Origin: Escherichia phage p000v
Direction: 5' to 3' (one strand)
Sequence record: NC_055781.1
Length of the DNA stretch: 64,000 nt
In this document: piece by piece, positions 3,937 to 63,247 of the stretch
How positions within the stretch are numbered: the stretch's first letter is position 1
Layout: the number at the start of each line of letters is the position of its first letter
Made by a program: the position numbers and the translations under genes
The notes under the pieces: model-generated
What the model saw: only the letters and a program-made list of their open reading frames with translations
Told to the model about the DNA's origin: nothing
Database searches by the model: none

Positions 3937-4887
3937 ATGACACGTTCACATTACATTGAATACTTTGCCGGTCTTATCGCTAACGTTCATGCTCAGCGCG
4001 CTTCTGGTGCACTAGGATTTGATGTTCCACACCGAGATGTAGTAAGTGGTATTCTTCGCGATTTTGGTACATACACAGGCCAAGAAAATCATATCTGTAA
4101 AGATACTCAGAATGCATATTCTCATTCATTAGGGACACTGCTTCAATGGTTCAAACGTTCTCGTTTATTATCTTCTACTGTAGCTCGCGATAACATTAAA
4201 AACTTTATGAAACCGAGCTTTATTAAATCTGTGACATCTAAAACCGATTTGGTTGAATTCACTATTGTTAATGATGTTAAAAAGACTCATTTAGCTGATT
4301 GGTTATCTACCATTCCTGAAACTAAATTTGCTGATAAATTTGCTTGTGAATTCAATAACCAAGTGAATATGCTTTTTAAACATTCTCGTAAATTATTCAC
4401 AGGCGGCGATGATCGTACAAATAAAGTTCATGTTAAAGATTGGGTTACTGCAGTATTCAAACCAACAGGTAATGGTAACGCATCATTGTCAATTGATATT
4501 CAGGTTCCTTATTACTACTCACGTAATCTCGGCACCATGAAAGCCGAAGAAATTAATAAGCGCAACAAAACCATTCGTTCGCTGTCTTATAAACTTCGCA
4601 TGATGTTAAGAATCATGGACGTGGTAGAAATGTATGATGAAACCGAAGATAATGGTTCAATGTTATACAGTTCTCGCATTCAAATTAAGTTGAAGAACCC
4701 TAACGAGTATAAGCCTAAGCCTATTAAAGAGCCTAAAGCAGAAAAAGTTGATAACTTAAGAGAAGAACGCGAATATCTCAAATCTCGTCTGAAAGAAGTC
4801 GAAGCCCAGATTAAAGAACAGACTAAATCGTTAAAAGCTCTGAATGCGAAAGCGGATGGTTTACGAAATGCCATTGAGGTGTTATAA
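3937..4887 (+). CDS. hypothetical protein with C-terminal coiled-coil-like region
   Basis: ORF track 316 aa; RBS GAGGAAAA. Confidence 0.55.
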   Translation: MTRSHYIEYFAGLIANVHAQRASGALGFDVPHRDVVSGILRDFGTYTGQENHICKDTQNAYSHSLGTLLQWFKRSRLLSSTVARDNIKNFMKPSFIKSVTSKTDLVEFTIVNDVKKTHLADWLSTIPETKFADKFACEFNNQVNMLFKHSRKLFTGGDDRTNKVHVKDWVTAVFKPTGNGNASLSIDIQVPYYYSRNLGTMKAEEINKRNKTIRSLSYKLRMMLRIMDVVEMYDETEDNGSMLYSSRIQIKLKNPNEYKPKPIKEPKAEKVDNLREEREYLKSRLKEVEAQIKEQTKSLKALNAKADGLRNAIEVL

Positions 4888-5192
4888 TGAAACTACGTCT
4901 TTTAGAGGATATTGATATGAGCACTAATCATGGCTTGGTTAAGTTTATTGACGATAGTTCAAAGATTGAATTTGTTCAGCGAGATAAAATCCACGGTGAA
5001 GAAGAGTTCGTTCCTCCAGCATGGAACGAAATAATGAAAATGGTTGAACGACGTGAAAATGCCGCCAAATCGGCAGCAAAACATCCGTGTCCGGAATGTG
5101 GAACTATCCAAGTCCAACTGGTTAACTGGACCAGTGATAACTTGAAATTGAAATGCCGTAAATGCTTCCACAAATTTGAGAGAACATTATAA
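4887..5192 (+). CDS. small Cys4 zinc-ribbon protein
   Basis: CPECG ... CRKC pairs; start overlaps upstream stop (TAATG). Confidence 0.5.
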   Translation: MKLRLLEDIDMSTNHGLVKFIDDSSKIEFVQRDKIHGEEEFVPPAWNEIMKMVERRENAAKSAAKHPCPECGTIQVQLVNWTSDNLKLKCRKCFHKFERTL

Positions 5193-5605
5193 TGAGATAT
5201 AGCCTTCGTTGTTTTATCGCAGCTTTAGTTTTTGCCATTATTCCATTCATTTGGAACAGCCAGAATACTTACATGGAAACTAAAGTAATTCCTGTGGAGG
5301 TAGTGGAATTAATCTCAGGCCAATCTACAGGAAAATATTCTAAATTAGAATTTATTGCAGTCTATAAAGATGAGCAAGGACGAGTTTTTGACAGGCGTGT
5401 ATCACCTTCGTTTTATACGCTTCTGAATAAAGGTGATACGATAGCTATAGAAATTCGTGAGATGGATATCAAACAAACTACTAAAGATAACTTGATTTGG
5501 TTCTTTGGTACAGTGTTGTTGGTTTCTATCTGTATCACAGGTTTTATTACATGTATTGTATTTGGCATTGCATATTTAATCGATGAAAGGAAAAATAATG
5601 TTTAA
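5192..5605 (+). CDS. membrane protein (two predicted TM segments)
   Basis: Hydrophobic N- and C-terminal segments; ATGA-type start overlap. Confidence 0.5.
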   Translation: MRYSLRCFIAALVFAIIPFIWNSQNTYMETKVIPVEVVELISGQSTGKYSKLEFIAVYKDEQGRVFDRRVSPSFYTLLNKGDTIAIEIREMDIKQTTKDNLIWFFGTVLLVSICITGFITCIVFGIAYLIDERKNNV

Positions 5606-5861
5606 AGTGTACGGGTATGACTCTACTATTCATAAATGCATTTATTGTGATAATGCGAAACGATTGCTGACTGTTAAGAAACAGCCGTTCGAATTCATTA
5701 ATGTTATGCCAGAAAAAGGTGTTTTTGATGATGAGAAAATTGCTGAGCTTCTGGTTAAGCTTGGACGTGAATCACAAGTCGGATTGACTATGCCTCAAGT
5801 GTTTGCTCCTGACGGAAGTCACATTGGTGGATTTGACCAACTACGAGAATATTTTAAATGA
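5598..5861 (+). CDS. nrdC: glutaredoxin-like thioredoxin NrdC
   Basis: MFKVYGYDS..KCIYCDNAK..PQVFAPDGSHIGGFDQLREYFK matches recalled T4 NrdC almost residue for residue. Confidence 0.85.
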   Translation: MFKVYGYDSTIHKCIYCDNAKRLLTVKKQPFEFINVMPEKGVFDDEKIAELLVKLGRESQVGLTMPQVFAPDGSHIGGFDQLREYFK

Positions 5862-6154
5862 GTATTGATTTAACTTTCCCTGGCCCTTATGACCAGGGTG
5901 AATTAGAAGCTTTATTATATCAAGAAATGTGCTCTCGTGCCAAGAACGATATTCAGTATGCTATCGATAATCCATGGGGCGAATTTCGAGTAATGATGGG
6001 TAATCGAATCATCGGTGTCCAATGGCGATTCGTTGGCCTTGAGCCTGAGGACTATGAAGAAAACGAGCACGGTGACTGGATTCCTGTTGGTGAATATCAC
6101 TGGGAATACGGTGGTCCTGATTTTGAAGTCTCTTGTTCATGGGTAGAACAATAA
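5858..6154 (+). CDS. hypothetical protein
   Basis: ORF track 98 aa; coupled start. Confidence 0.5.
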   Translation: MSIDLTFPGPYDQGELEALLYQEMCSRAKNDIQYAIDNPWGEFRVMMGNRIIGVQWRFVGLEPEDYEENEHGDWIPVGEYHWEYGGPDFEVSCSWVEQ

Positions 6155-6172
6155 CCTGCGAGAAAATTTTAA

Positions 6173-6529
6173 ATGACATATTCATTAAATCTTAAAGATT
6201 TCCAGGATGTATACGAAGTTTGTGCCAACGAACTTGGTCCTGATGCTCCAACTATTATTGAAGTTTTAAATGTGCTCCCTTCATCATTAGCTTACGAAGC
6301 CAAATCATGGGGATGGAACGACACTGTCGTTCGTGATGACCTTTACGTCCTGATGAACGACATGATGGTTAAAAAGGCAGAACCGGTTGCACCAATGGTT
6401 ACCATTACCATTGAAGAATATAATCGCCTGCAAGCCATTGAAGAGCTTCTGTGGAACATTGAATGTGACCTGCCGTCAGGGCTAGAATCCTGGATTGATT
6501 ATGAAGAGCTCAATAAACTCCGGGGTTAA
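6173..6529 (+). CDS. hypothetical protein
   Basis: ORF track 118 aa. Confidence 0.5.
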   Translation: MTYSLNLKDFQDVYEVCANELGPDAPTIIEVLNVLPSSLAYEAKSWGWNDTVVRDDLYVLMNDMMVKKAEPVAPMVTITIEEYNRLQAIEELLWNIECDLPSGLESWIDYEELNKLRG

Positions 6530-6829
6530 ACCGTGGTATTCTGCTCGATGGGAGACTGTCGAGCCAGACGTCGAAACAGTTTACAACGACGAAGAAACGT
6601 GTTATGATGAACCTACAGTAAACGATATGATTGATTTGGAAATGGGAAGAGATTATTATGCAAGTTAAATTATTGTACCGTTTATTAAAAAGTGGCAAGC
6701 ATGATTGGTATTTGCTTATTAAAACCGATCCGAATTTTTTCTCTGGACAACCATTTACAGTTCGTCCTACTAAACGTCAGCTTCGCAAAGCTAAACGTTC
6801 TCATCGTAACTTTTATAGAGAATATTGAT

Positions 6830-7243
6830 ATGAATATTTCTGAAACTCGCGGTAAATGGTTCAAGATTGTTAAAGAAGACGAAGAACTACAAGTCAAGTT
6901 TCCTGAATTAAAGAAAGGAACAATCATCAAGGTAATTGGTACTACTACCGAAGATGGTTATGGCGACCATGGCATTATCGAAGTGATGTTGAACACAGGT
7001 GAGAAACTTTGCATCTATGACCGTGATACTTCTCTTTGGTGCTTCTGGGAATCCCATTCAATAGATGAACTCGAAGAAATTGACCAAGTAGTTTGTGATG
7101 GTGGACTTGGTGAATTCGAAGGTGAACGTATTTCTTATGCTTTAGCTAAATTAGCTGGTCAAGAAAATAATGACGGTTATGAAGGTAATCTGATGCAAGC
7201 CGCAGCGGAATACATTGAATATTTAGAAAGACGTTTAAGTTAA
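6830..7243 (+). CDS. hypothetical acidic protein
   Basis: Internal ATG at 6830 directly after upstream stop (TGATATG); 5' part of tracked ORF overlaps another ORF. Confidence 0.5.
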   Translation: MNISETRGKWFKIVKEDEELQVKFPELKKGTIIKVIGTTTEDGYGDHGIIEVMLNTGEKLCIYDRDTSLWCFWESHSIDELEEIDQVVCDGGLGEFEGERISYALAKLAGQENNDGYEGNLMQAAAEYIEYLERRLS

Positions 7244-7248
7244 TAAAT

Positions 7249-7273
7249 ACCCTTATCTATTTAAGGTAAGGGT
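7249..7273 (+). promoter_or_regulatory. hairpin ACCCTTA...TAAGGGT enclosing the Shine-Dalgarno of gene 49
   Basis: 7 bp inverted repeat; 3' arm contains AAGGG immediately 5' of ATG at 7279. Confidence 0.4.
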
Positions 7274-7278
7274 TTATT

Positions 7279-7752
7279 ATGTTATTATCTGGCAAATTAT
7301 ACAAAGAAGAAAAACAAAAATTTTATGATGCACAGAACGGTAAGTGTCCTATTTGCCACCGTGAATTAGACCCTGATGTTCAAGGTAACCATCTTGACCA
7401 CGACCACGAGTTAAACGGGCCAAAAGCCGGTAGAGTTCGTGGATTACTCTGTAATCTGTGCAACGCAGCAGAAGGCCAAATGAAGCATAAGTTCAACCGT
7501 TCTGGTCTTAAAGGTCAAAACGTTGATTACCTCGAATGGCTTGAAGCTCTTCTTGCTTATTTGAAACAAGATTATTCTGATAATAATATCCATCCTAATT
7601 TTGTTCCAGACAAAACTAAAGAGTTCTCAAGACTAGGTAAAGAGGAAATGATGGCTGAGATGCTTCAAAGAGGATTTGAATATAATGAATCTGATACTAA
7701 AACACAATTAATAGCTTCATTCAAAAAGCAGCTTAGAAAGAGTTTAAAATGA
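7279..7752 (+). CDS. 49: endonuclease VII (Holliday junction resolvase)
   Basis: 157 aa; near-identical to recalled T4 gp49 (MLL.GKLYKEEKQKFYDAQNGKC.IC..EL.PDVQ.NHLDHDHELNGPKAG). Confidence 0.9.
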   Translation: MLLSGKLYKEEKQKFYDAQNGKCPICHRELDPDVQGNHLDHDHELNGPKAGRVRGLLCNLCNAAEGQMKHKFNRSGLKGQNVDYLEWLEALLAYLKQDYSDNNIHPNFVPDKTKEFSRLGKEEMMAEMLQRGFEYNESDTKTQLIASFKKQLRKSLK

Positions 7753-9566
7753 AAATTGAAAAAGAAATTGAAGGATTAATTTATAAAACTAATAAAGATC
7801 TTTTGAACGAGAATGCTAATAAAGATTCTCGTGTTTTTCCAACTCAACGGGACCTTATGGCTGGTATTGTGTCTAAGCACATTGCCAAAAATATGGTCCC
7901 GTCTTTTATTATGAATGCGCATGAAAGTGGAATTATCCACATGCATGATATTGATTATTCTCCTGCTCTTCCGTTTACTAATTGTTGTTTAGTCGATTTA
8001 AAGGGGATGCTTGAGAACGGATTTAAATTAGGCAATGCTCAAATTGAAACGCCTAAATCGATTGGTGTTGCTACTGCAATTATGGCACAAATTACTGCAC
8101 AAGTTGCTTCACATCAGTATGGCGGAACTACATTTGCAAATGTCGATAAAGTTCTTTCTCCTTATGTTAAACGTACATACGCTAAACATGTTGAAGATGC
8201 AGAAAAATGGCAAATCGCTGATGCGTTGAATTATGCTCAATCTAAAACAGAAAAAGACGTATACGATGCATTCCAAGCTTATGAATATGAAGTAAATACT
8301 CTCTTTAGTTCAAACGGACAAACGCCTTTTGTAACAATTACATTTGGTACGGGAACCGATTGGACTGAACGAATGATTCAGAAGGCAATTCTGAAAAATC
8401 GGATTAAAGGTCTTGGTCGTGATGGGATAACTCCTATTTTTCCTAAACTTGTTATGTTTGTTGAAGAAGGTGTTAATCTTTATAAAGATGATCCAAACTA
8501 TGATATTAAACAACTTGCGTTAGAATGTGCAAGCAAAAGAATGTATCCTGACATTATTTCGGTTAAGAATAATAAAGCTATTACCGGTTCTTCAGTTCCT
8601 GTTTCTCCAATGGGTTGCCGTAGTTTCTTGAGCGTATGGAAAGATTCAACTGGAAATGAAATTCTTGACGGTCGTAATAATCTCGGTGTTGTAACACTGA
8701 ATCTTCCTCGCATCGCATTAGATTCTTATATTGGAACACAGTTCAATGAACAGAAATTTGTTGAATTATTCAATGAACGAATGGATTTATGTTTTGAAGC
8801 TTTGATGTGTAGAATTAGTTCCTTAAAAGGAGTTAAAGCGACTGTTGCTCCTATTCTTTACCAAGAAGGTGCATTCGGGGTTCGTCTTAAACCTGATGAC
8901 GATATAATTGAGTTATTTAAAAACGGTAGAAGTTCAGTGTCTTTAGGATACATCGGTATTCATGAATTGAATATTCTTGTTGGTCGTGATATTGGACAAG
9001 AAATTTTAACTAAAATGAATGCTCATCTTAAACAGTGGACTGAAAGAACTGGTTTTGCTTTTAGTTTGTATTCTACTCCTGCTGAAAACCTTTGTTATCG
9101 CTTCTGTAAACTCGATACAGAAAAATATGGAAGTGTAAAAGATGTTACCGATAAAGGCTGGTACACTAACAGTTTCCACGTTTCAGTAGAAGAAAATATT
9201 ACTCCGTTTGAAAAGATTTCTCGTGAAGCGCCATATCATTTCATTGCGACAGGTGGTCACATTTCTTATGTTGAACTTCCAGATATGAAAAACAATTTAA
9301 AGGGACTTGAGGCCGTCTGGGATTATGCTGCACAACATTTAGATTATTTTGGTGTTAATATGCCAGTGGATAAATGTTTTACATGTGGAAGTACCCATGA
9401 AATGACTCCTACTGAAAACGGATTTGTTTGTTCAGTTTGCGGAGAAACTGATCCTAAAAAGATGAACACCATAAGAAGAACATGCGGTTATTTGGGAAAT
9501 CCGAACGAACGCGGATTTAATCTCGGTAAAAATAAAGAAATCATGCATAGGGTTAAACACCAATGA
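7749..9566 (+). CDS. nrdD: anaerobic ribonucleoside-triphosphate reductase NrdD
   Basis: 605 aa; C-terminal glycyl-radical motif RRTCGYLG and Cys cluster; uninterrupted reading frame. Confidence 0.92.
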   Translation: MKIEKEIEGLIYKTNKDLLNENANKDSRVFPTQRDLMAGIVSKHIAKNMVPSFIMNAHESGIIHMHDIDYSPALPFTNCCLVDLKGMLENGFKLGNAQIETPKSIGVATAIMAQITAQVASHQYGGTTFANVDKVLSPYVKRTYAKHVEDAEKWQIADALNYAQSKTEKDVYDAFQAYEYEVNTLFSSNGQTPFVTITFGTGTDWTERMIQKAILKNRIKGLGRDGITPIFPKLVMFVEEGVNLYKDDPNYDIKQLALECASKRMYPDIISVKNNKAITGSSVPVSPMGCRSFLSVWKDSTGNEILDGRNNLGVVTLNLPRIALDSYIGTQFNEQKFVELFNERMDLCFEALMCRISSLKGVKATVAPILYQEGAFGVRLKPDDDIIELFKNGRSSVSLGYIGIHELNILVGRDIGQEILTKMNAHLKQWTERTGFAFSLYSTPAENLCYRFCKLDTEKYGSVKDVTDKGWYTNSFHVSVEENITPFEKISREAPYHFIATGGHISYVELPDMKNNLKGLEAVWDYAAQHLDYFGVNMPVDKCFTCGSTHEMTPTENGFVCSVCGETDPKKMNTIRRTCGYLGNPNERGFNLGKNKEIMHRVKHQ

Positions 9567-10033
9567 ATTATGATAGATTTTATCCTTGCGATTTTGTGAA
9601 TGGCCCGGGATGCAGGGTCGTTCTTTTCGTTACGGGTTGTTTGCATAAATGCGAAGGGTGTTATAATAAATCAACATGGAATGCTAGAAATGGTATTCCA
9701 TTCACTGGTGAAACACTAGAACAATTAATTGAATGTTTGAATAATGATTATATAGAAGGATTAACTATAACCGGAGGTGACCCTCTCTATCCTGATAACC
9801 GAGATGTTATTCATTGCATTGCTCAAACAGTAAAAAATCTTTATCCCAATAAAAGCATTTGGTTGTGGACAGGATATAAGTTTGAAGATATTAAACAACT
9901 AGAAATGCTTAAATATGTTGATGTTATTATTGATGGGAAGTATGAGAAAAATCTTCCGACTAAAAAGCTGTGGCGAGGATCAGATAATCAGCGACTTTGG
10001 TCAAATACCGATGGGGTGTGGAAACATGATTAA
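9563..10033 (+). CDS. nrdG: anaerobic RNR activating enzyme NrdG (radical SAM)
   Basis: 156 aa; CLHKCEGCYN radical-SAM-type Cys motif; coupled to nrdD (ATGA overlap). Confidence 0.9.
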   Translation: MNYDRFYPCDFVNGPGCRVVLFVTGCLHKCEGCYNKSTWNARNGIPFTGETLEQLIECLNNDYIEGLTITGGDPLYPDNRDVIHCIAQTVKNLYPNKSIWLWTGYKFEDIKQLEMLKYVDVIIDGKYEKNLPTKKLWRGSDNQRLWSNTDGVWKHD

Positions 10034-13457: not shown

Positions 13458-14015
13458 ATGACTGAACAAAAACCTAAAAATAACTATGTGAATAATAAAG
13501 AGCTTCTCGCCGCTATAATCGAGTGGAAAAAGGAGCTCTTAAATAATAAAGACCCAAACAAAATTATTCGTCAGAATGATACCATCGGTTTAGCAATTAT
13601 GCTTATCGCCGAAGGCCTGTCCAAACGTTTCAACTTTTCAGGATATACCCAGTCTTGGAAGCAGGAGATGATTGCAGATGGGATTGAAGCCTCTATTAAG
13701 GGACTTCATAATTTCGACGAAACTAAGTACAATAACCCACATGCATACATAACTCGAGCTTGTTTTAATGCTTTTGTCCAACGTATCAAAAAAGAACGTA
13801 AGGAAGTTGCAAAGAAATATAGTTACTTCGTTCATAATGTCTACGACAGTCATGACGATGATATGGTAGCGTTGGTAGATGAAACGTTTATTCAAGACAT
13901 CTACGATAAAATGACGCATTATGAAGAATCCGCTTATAAAGCTCCTGGGGCTGAAAAGAAGGAAGTTGTTAGCGATTCGCCTAGTTTGGATTTTTTATAT
14001 GAGGATGACAATTGA
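13458..14015 (+). CDS. 55: late-transcription sigma factor gp55
   Basis: [59 protein letters not shown] matches recalled T4 gp55; ATG 13458 with RBS GAGGT. Confidence 0.9.
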
Positions 14016-38532: not shown

Positions 38533-38726
38533 ACAAGCCCTATAATAGCAAAGGCCAAATCAACTACAGTATCCAATGGAACAGAAGGAACTATAATACC
38601 ATGGGCAACTAACAATGGTGCAATCCCGAAGTTCCATGAAATAATGCCACCTACAACTATTGCAGCGATAGCAGTTTTCTTTTTATTGCCTTTAATAGCG
38701 TTGATTAACGATGGAAGTTTAAACAT
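38529..38726 (-). CDS. small membrane protein encoded on the opposite strand
   Basis: Strong RBS AAGGAG on minus strand 5 nt before ATG; hydrophobic 65 aa. Confidence 0.5.
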   Translation of the reverse strand: MFKLPSLINAIKGNKKKTAIAAIVVGGIISWNFGIAPLLVAHGIIVPSVPLDTVVDLAFAIIGLV

Positions 38727-39381: not shown

Positions 39382-39618
39382 ATGGGTGGTTACGTTAATA
39401 TCAAAACCTTTACTCATCCAGCGGGTGAAGGCAAAGAAGTTAAAGGTATGGAAGTTTCTGTTCCGTTTGAAATCTATTCTAACGAGCATCGTATTGCAGA
39501 TTCTCATTACCAAATCTTTCCATCAGAAAAGGCAGCTTATTCTACTGTAGTTTCTGATGCAGCTGACTGGAAAACTAAGAACGCTGCAATGTTTACCCCT
39601 ACACCAGTAAGTGGTTAA
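39382..39618 (+). CDS. soc: small outer capsid protein Soc
   Basis: GYVNIKTF ... AHYQ.FPSEKAAYSTV matches recalled T4 Soc. Confidence 0.85.
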   Translation: MGGYVNIKTFTHPAGEGKEVKGMEVSVPFEIYSNEHRIADSHYQIFPSEKAAYSTVVSDAADWKTKNAAMFTPTPVSG

Positions 39619-46225: not shown

Positions 46226-46645
46226 ATGAATATTGCAAATCTCTCTATTGGTGATTATGTACACGTATCAGATGCTTCTCGCTCTAAAGTTGCTGGGAAG
46301 TTGGTTGAAGTTCTTTATGTAAGTGATCCGGTTTTTGGACGTAACGAAGTTAAAGTTCGTGACGCCGATGGCAACATTGGTTACGTTAAAAGCCAATTCA
46401 TTGAACCAGAAGAAAAAGCGTTCAAATGGGGACTATGCAGATCAGTTTCTGTTGAAAAAGACCATGAATTCACTATTGCTGCGGCAACTGATGGGACACC
46501 GTGGAAAACTAAGCAAATCGCTGGATTTATTAGCGACCGTTGGGTAGAAGATGGTGTTAAGCTTTATAACATCGTTTTCGCTGGACAGTTCATGGTAGTT
46601 CCTGAATTCCAAATTAAAAAATATAGCCCAGCTGCTTTCGCATAA
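46226..46645 (+). CDS. hypothetical protein, paralog family member 3
   Basis: GFISDRWVEDGVKLYNIVFAGQFMVVP. Confidence 0.55.
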   Translation: MNIANLSIGDYVHVSDASRSKVAGKLVEVLYVSDPVFGRNEVKVRDADGNIGYVKSQFIEPEEKAFKWGLCRSVSVEKDHEFTIAAATDGTPWKTKQIAGFISDRWVEDGVKLYNIVFAGQFMVVPEFQIKKYSPAAFA

Positions 46646-62587: not shown

Positions 62588-63247
62588 TTATTTAGCCCTT
62601 CCTAGTATTCGGACCGCTTGGTTGCATATAGCTGCTAAGCGATCTTCCTCAAGTATATTACTCCCCTTATACCAATACATCGTCACAGTTCCAGCGTAGA
62701 TGTTATCCAAATTAAAGTATGGACAACTATACATATAAGAAAGTTCGGCAGTCTTAGATTTTGTAGGCAAAAATGCAAATTCTGATTTAGACGAGAAATG
62801 ACGGCCACTTAAATGAATTATATATTCATTGGCCGTTTTATCCACCGGGAATCCCCCAAGGGACTTTTCAGAAATTGTGCTAGGTAGTTTGCCTTCATAA
62901 GCTATAAGGTCGACGAAATAATTTAAGTTTTTAGGTCTGAAAGAATACACAGCACTAAAATCTGCACCAGATGAGATATGAACTATTTGCAGTTGTTCTA
63001 GAGCCGCAGATTCAAAACGTAAAGCTCGTTCTTTTTGGATTATTTCAGTATAAGTATCATACTTAGATCTTACATAATAATCCAGCAAAATACTTCCTTT
63101 GTACCATATTAGTGCCATTAGGAACAAAAGAATAATTACCGCTACTCGGGACATTAAAACCTTTCCAGTAGCGTTATCTTTGAAAATACGATCTAGCAAC
63201 CCAAATAGAATATCACTAGGCGAAAATGACACTTTTGGTGTTGCCAT
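62588..63247 (-). CDS. t: holin T
   Basis: Minus strand; MA.P..SFSPSDILFG.LDR.FKDNATGKVL.SRVAV.ILLF ... matches recalled T4 holin t; 219 aa. Confidence 0.9.
   Translation of the reverse strand: MATPKVSFSPSDILFGLLDRIFKDNATGKVLMSRVAVIILLFLMALIWYKGSILLDYYVRSKYDTYTEIIQKERALRFESAALEQLQIVHISSGADFSAVYSFRPKNLNYFVDLIAYEGKLPSTISEKSLGGFPVDKTANEYIIHLSGRHFSSKSEFAFLPTKSKTAELSYMYSCPYFNLDNIYAGTVTMYWYKGSNILEEDRLAAICNQAVRILGRAK

Follow-up and report, generated by a model that had tools for sequence, protein, structure and literature searches.

Is the hairpin that encloses the ribosome-binding site of gene 49 (recombination endonuclease VII) in Escherichia phage p000v a device by which long transcripts are silenced and late ones translated, and is it the device already known from phage T4? 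We addressed this question in a stretch of 64,000 nucleotides (record NC_055781.1; hereafter 'the window', whose positions are used throughout), and we consider it very probable that the element is the translational control hairpin of T4 gene 49, carried here by a Mosigvirus. The element as such is already known, since it was described for T4 in 1988 and is cited in reviews. In T4 an inhibitory RNA helix lies over the Shine-Dalgarno (SD) sequence and/or the AUG of genes e, soc, 49 and I-TevI (PMC3014915), and PMC2988022 likewise reports the sequestration of gene 49, with reference to Barth et al. 1988 (the gene appears there as 39, evidently for 49). The T4 case being a textbook example of translational control by choice of the transcript 5' end, the discovery value is small; the breadth and the covariation found across T4-like phages, together with the non-conservation of the nested start, are modest additions made here.

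Locus, hairpin and late-promoter box of gene 49

Gene 49 (7279..7752, + strand, 157 aa; open reading frame list and Pfam) encodes a protein with the domains PF02945 (Endonuclease_7) and PF09124 (T4 endonuclease VII dimerisation domain), which shares 91% amino-acid identity with T4 gp49, and it belongs to a region (4887-10033, + strand) in which the longest open reading frames are tightly packed and co-directional. Upstream lies pin (PinA peptidase inhibitor; 6830..7243, + strand; open reading frame list, Pfam PF10465, E = 8e-49), whose start at 6830 was placed from the span of the Pfam match and the 137-aa pin annotation in phage G2285, and whose stop codon is TAA (7241-7243, + strand); long early/middle transcripts reading into gene 49 would traverse it. 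Downstream follow nrdD (7749-9566, + strand) and nrdG (9563-10033, + strand), each joined to the preceding gene by an ATGA overlap, and this arrangement (pin upstream of gene 49, nrdD and nrdG downstream) is common to T4 and p000v. Over the kilobase around gene 49 the window is 99.8% identical to Escherichia phage TH12 (Mosigvirus, Tevenvirinae). The window also encodes the late sigma factor gp55 (13458..14015, + strand), the factor that would read the box AATAAATA in front of gene 49; its open reading frame received no recognition from Pfam and was recognised by PHROGs (PHROG 234, 'late sigma transcription factor', E = 4e-68).

The leader of gene 49 (7242-7281, AATAAATACCCTTATCTATTTAAGGTAAGGGTTTATTATG) is predicted to fold into a stem of 10 bp (four G-C pairs, one G-U), in which the 5' arm ACCCUUAUCU (7249..7258, + strand), delimited by fold and covariation, pairs across the loop AUUUA (7259..7263, + strand) with the 3' arm AGGUAAGGGU (7264..7273, + strand). 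The preliminary description had drawn a 7-bp stem from ACCCTTA (7249-7255) and TAAGGGT (7267-7273); that complementarity stands, and the length does not, as three inner pairs (U7256-G7266, C7257-G7265 and U7258-A7264) are added to it. Its further claim, that the ribosome-binding site of gene 49 sits inside the 3' arm ahead of an ATG at 7279, holds in full: the best complement of the 16S rRNA 3' end, judged by duplex formation, is UAAGGG (7267-7272, + strand), which lies wholly within the 3' arm and 6 nt before the AUG, preceded by a near-repeat (UAAGG, 7262-7266, + strand) that is itself partly in that arm, and a U-rich spacer (UUAUU, 7274..7278, + strand) fills the distance between the stem and the ATG. 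Nine of the 12 nucleotides of the SD region are paired, and in a longer RNA an A-U extension (7241-7246 with 7274-7279) draws the A of the AUG into pairing too. The minimum free energy (MFE) of the hairpin is -12.4 kcal/mol, as compared to -5.2 +/- 1.7 kcal/mol in dinucleotide shuffles (z = -4.1; equalled in 1 of 200), and folding is weaker on the antisense strand (-8.7 kcal/mol). A cmscan of 6500-8000 against Rfam returned no match at the gathering score (best 26.9 bits, cutoff 140).

The late-promoter-like sequence that had been noticed at the 5' arm is the gp55-type box AATAAATA (7242..7249, + strand, -13 to -6; the same in T4), and it does overlap the hairpin, for its last A (A7249) is also the first nucleotide of the stem. 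The doubt raised earlier over its imperfect agreement with TATAAATA is unfounded, because AATAAATA is T4's own sequence at this place. A T4 late promoter is a TATA box of 8 bp, set about one turn of the helix ahead of the start, and among the 50 listed 32 are perfect and nine have A(-13) in place of T (Geiduschek & Kassavetis, PMC2988020); AATAAATA is the commonest natural variant (A at -13, 9/50 sites). With the box at -13 to -6 (PMC2988020), the late +1 is predicted near A7255 (+ strand, plus or minus 1-2 nt), hence inside the 5' arm (the T4 counterpart of this predicted start is at about 46879, minus strand), and the predicted late RNA is devoid of ACCCUU, that is, of six of the ten nucleotides of the arm. 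Within the 64-kb window the core ATAAATA occurs at 8 sites (both strands), as compared to 28.9 +/- 4.8 expected (3.6-fold depleted; every shuffle had at least 8 sites), a scarcity consistent with selection against misplaced late promoters. Only at one of these eight sites (7242) does a strong hairpin set in on the box's final A; the seven others of the window lack one, and they are located at 405 and 417 (+ strand, before the open reading frame starting at 444), 39344 (+ strand, before that at 39382), 63274 (- strand, before that at 63247), 38754 (- strand, before that at 38726), and 62557 and 50085 (both - strand).

The proposed switch by transcript 5' end

The computed cost of opening the ribosome-binding site depends on where the RNA begins. 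For AAGGG (7268-7272) it amounts to 9.1-9.8 kcal/mol in long RNA (three starts, 7100-7241) versus 1.2-1.7 kcal/mol in RNA starting at 7254-7257, and for the whole region from SD to AUG (7264-7281) to 11.7-16.2 versus 3.2-3.9 kcal/mol for the same two sets of starts. The gap at the SD between long and late RNA is thus about 8 kcal/mol by thermodynamic prediction, and the late leader is predicted to be only partly open (residual 4-bp AUCU/AGGU pairing; mean P(unpaired) 0.54 over -14 to -4). For an analogous structure in T4 gene e a 100-fold translational effect has been reported (PMC3014915).

We envisage that early and middle transcripts from upstream (nrdC-pin region), on reading into gene 49, would fold the 10-bp hairpin (7249-7273) and thereby bury UAAGGG and, through the A-U extension, the A of the AUG, so that 30S binding would be weak and little endonuclease VII would be made. 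After the onset of replication, gp55-RNA polymerase would start at the AATAAATA box, and the late RNA, beginning near A7255 and missing ACCCUU, would form no stem and would be translated. Repression on long transcripts with relief on late ones, as in T4, was what the preliminary description had suggested, and at the level of sequence and modelling it finds support in the leader (38 of 38 bases shared with T4), the position of the box, the opening costs and the covariation (the first and last of these are presented below); we infer the late +1, the occurrence of read-through transcripts in p000v and the size of the translational effect. We also considered that ribosomes finishing pin at its stop codon (7241-7243) might unwind the structure, and set this aside as a major effect: with the ribosomal helicase at about +11 from the P site, they would reach no further than the A-U extension and the first pair of the stem.

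The same logic is shared by T4 e, soc and I-TevI, in which long early/middle transcripts fold over the SD/AUG (PMC3014915, PMC2988022), and late transcripts from a TATAAATA-type box, being without the 5' strand, are translated. These are different genes with unrelated sequences, and the box of gene 49 is distinguished from theirs as the A(-13) variant, the last base of which is the first base of the stem. Two features of the class were found in p000v, namely a helix that sequesters the ribosome-binding site (10-bp stem, SD in the 3' arm, A7279 paired by the extension) and a gp55-type box with a late +1 (a predicted one) within or after the 5' strand. As regards timing, an omics study of T4 classed the transcript of gene 49 (T4p078) as early, and recorded for its product (END7_BPT4) an LFQ of 0 from t0 through t8, a first signal at 12 min (seen in two of the three replicates) and strong values at 20 and 30 min, a course resembling that of the late baseplate proteins gp48 and gp54 (PMC9697503). 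Since many other early-transcribed T4 genes likewise score as late proteins in those data (PMC9697503), the timing of END7 is not specific evidence.

Identity with T4 and conservation among relatives

The T4 leader (Barth, Powell, Trupin & Mosig 1988, Genetics 120:329) and positions 7241-7278 of p000v are identical at 38 of 38 bases, a match that takes in the AATAAATA box, all 10 bp of the stem, the SD and the spacer, and the coding sequence of gene 49 is 82.5% identical to that of T4 (NC_000866, 46382-46855, minus strand), with 62.7% at third codon positions. Because the first 60 nt of the coding sequence are also nearly invariant (56/60 identical), a recombination patch may, as far as the sequences tell, partly explain why the leader shows no change at all. 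The sequence preceding the pin stop codon in p000v is unrelated to T4 (21/60 ungapped matches), and the distance from this codon to the stem is 5 nt in p000v and 11 nt in T4. Megablast homology to T2/RB3-type phages begins exactly at 7241 (query position 442), and with none upstream of this point the box, the hairpin and the gene appear to travel as one unit. The window has a mosaic junction at 7241: similarity of the T4/T2/RB3 type starts at the pin stop, and the pin region belongs to another type. In the close Mosigvirus relatives G2285, O157 typing phage 3 and SQ17 an extra open reading frame of about 190 bp (59 aa) is inserted between pin and the box (the region used for comparing the junction is 1925-2104 of locus L002), and G2285 has a perfect TATAAATA box.

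We assembled a first set of 44 IMG/VR loci with relatives of gp49 (53-98% amino-acid identity), all of which have an (N)ATAAATA box immediately ahead of a hairpin with the SD in its 3' arm, with two variants: ATTAAATA at one locus, and CTAAATA in one group (including a contig of 233,234 bp), the latter matching the published late consensus of Aeh1, (a/g)CTAAATA (PMC2988020). The box was found at the same place in 28/28 distinct leaders. When the distinct leaders were folded singly (n=35), the hairpin began on the final A of the box (three nucleotides further on in L041), ended 0-8 nt before the start codon in 35/35, and had an MFE of -8.5 to -13.9 kcal/mol. The arms are rewritten between clades by compensatory changes, as typified by CCCUUAUCU/AGGUAAGGG, GGUUCA/UGAACC, CUCUUA/UAAGAG, CCUCUAUA/UAUAGGGG, GAGUCAU/AUGACUC and GUCCUAU/AUAGGGC. 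On a structure-blind MAFFT alignment of 28 distinct leaders a 9-pair helix was named and its pairs were counted: 89.6% were paired, double-sided changes affected 6 of the 9 pairs (in 55 cells), and the covariation score of 0.55 (0.19 in shuffles) was reached by 0/500 of the shuffles. As a control, sliding the 3' partner by 1-3 columns lowered the pairing to 39-52%. RNAalifold returned no structure for the MAFFT alignment, probably on account of loop-length gaps. The covariation supports a structure at the RNA level, as judged from these alignments, and the compensatory changes in relatives are a mark of selection on that structure. A hairpin arisen by chance was ruled out by the z-score, the covariation and the uniqueness among the box sites.

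These comparisons bear on two other readings of the inverted repeat. The first would have it act as DNA, with a protein binding it as an operator across the late promoter, in the manner of I-TevI autorepression; the palindrome does overlap the promoter box, and operator sites overlapping late promoters are known for intron endonucleases (PMC2988022). An operator would keep its sequence, whereas here the arms differ wholly between clades and it is the pairing that is kept. Furthermore, one helix position is U-G in 22/28 leaders, a pair which the sense strand tolerates and whose counterpart on the other strand would be A-C, a mismatch. The energies given above favour folding of the sense RNA over the antisense, and the 3' arm invariably falls on the SD or the AUG; we therefore regard an operator as extremely unlikely. 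The second reading, to which we assign an equally slim chance, is an element of RNA processing or stability (a nuclease site or a protective hairpin) in place of a translational switch. T4 mRNAs are indeed widely processed, for instance by RegB at GGAG in SD regions (PMC3014915). The leader in the window contains no GGAG, by which a RegB target is ruled out, and most clades have GAGGUG or AAGGG. A stem of 10 bp is, moreover, short for RNase III, and it would be no 5' protective hairpin for late transcripts because these would start inside it.

A profile-based scan widened the comparison to relatives at 42-58% identity, among them RB43-like, Acinetobacter-phage-like and 44RR/25-like contigs. 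In the 44RR/25-like loci (L106, L107, L111 and L112) AAGAGCAU, located right after the box, pairs with AUGCUCUU, so that the 3' arm takes in the AUG and the first codons and the SD falls in the loop (-15.5 to -19.2 kcal/mol, z = -4.0 to -5.3). In L105 the box is in the loop, being preceded by the 5' arm, a fold that is less clear in L093 (z = -1.7; 12/200 shuffles as good). Three architectures are hence seen (SD in the 3' arm, AUG in the 3' arm, box in the loop), and all the T4-like gene 49 loci retrieved but one, which is doubtful, have a late box that stands either at the foot of a hairpin or in its loop, the hairpin occluding the SD or the AUG. In the remote Endonuclease VII homologues that came from the same scan (L119 and L121-L127), the 60 nt preceding the start inferred for each showed no such box.

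As for the interior of the gene, Barth and co-workers reportedly described in 1988 two nested products of T4 gene 49, of 18 and 12 kDa, and are said to have placed a late promoter within its hairpin-forming sequence. The nested 105-aa product of T4 is annotated from an internal GTG (codon 53) after AGGAAAG. In p000v this codon (7435-7437) is GTT, as opposed to the GTG of T4, and the purine run upstream of it is altered; among the 44 IMG/VR homologues codon 53 is GTG in 4, GTT in 28, GTC in 6, GTA in 4 and ATT in 2, with GTA even in some 91%-identical relatives. Going by these codons, the nested product does not look conserved. We give roughly even weight to a broader proposition, according to which the gene 49 switch would be an old module, kept in nearly all gp49-bearing T4-like phages from the T-even group to the Aeh1-, RB43-, 44RR- and Acinetobacter-phage-like contigs, with its logic alone conserved, the nested GUG lineage-specific, and the hairpin of the T4/Mosigvirus type perhaps also a leaky terminator.

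Terminator-like features, meaning and neighbouring elements

The hairpin and its U-rich tail could instead serve chiefly to end pin transcripts, as an intrinsic terminator or attenuator, the occlusion of the SD being incidental, or, in a weaker form, act as a coupled terminator-promoter that does both. Intrinsic terminators are likewise a stem-loop followed by a U-rich stretch, a consensus scan flags 7249-7273 as terminator-like (10 pairs, 4 G-C, tail TTATTATGTT), and the homologous hairpin is recorded in G2285 and Kha5h as a putative terminator, assigned by prediction software; the spacer UUAUU supplies the U-rich tail to which such programs respond. Moreover, the separate middle promoter of nrdD within gene 49 (in T4 and in the window) would be sensible if some upstream transcripts stopped at the hairpin. 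On the other hand, such terminators have a G+C-rich stem and an uninterrupted, conserved U-run, and what was found here is an A-U-rich stem (4/10 G-C, just 40%) with an interrupted tail (UUUAUUAU). Across 28 leaders the 8 nt after the stem contain 1-6 U (mostly 2-3), so that a U-run is missing from most of them, while the leaders keep the hairpin, its SD content with the resulting occlusion, and its placement close against the start codon. The T4 gene 49 transcript is classed as early, which calls for read-through: with no promoter between the hairpin and the ATG, early transcripts must pass the hairpin. A role in termination only would, furthermore, leave unexplained the geometry in which the box stands at the base of the stem. 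We consider this explanation quite unlikely, and grant that within the T4/Mosigvirus clade the hairpin may have a leaky or partial terminator role alongside the translational one that we favour.

The 'putative terminator' labels that several GenBank records attach to the homologous hairpin are probably misleading, and annotation pipelines could treat the combination of a late box and an SD hairpin as one regulatory unit. As a cis-regulatory RNA the element is very small, and the loci supply clean covariation data for it: stems are fully rewritten and the logic is kept in nearly all cases. This suggests that the delay of endonuclease VII synthesis is under strong selection, and a plausible reason would be that a junction-cleaving nuclease is harmful while recombination-dependent replication builds branched DNA.

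Some minor observations concern the genes downstream. The middle promoter of nrdD (7661-7694, + strand), located in the 3' end of gene 49, is conserved; it comprises a MotA-box-like TGCTTCA (7661-7667) and the -10 element TATAAT (7681-7686), which are identical to the T4 sequence, and the start listed for T4 (PnrdD+, P49.1, at 46440) corresponds to A7694 of the window. T4 carries an I-TevII intron in nrdD and the homing endonuclease gene mobC between nrdD and nrdG, both of which are missing from p000v, where nrdD is one uninterrupted open reading frame of 605 aa and nrdG comes directly after it. Just within the 5' end of nrdG we observed another terminator-like hairpin (9598-9623, + strand), with 9 pairs (5 of them G-C) and the tail TTTTCGTT.
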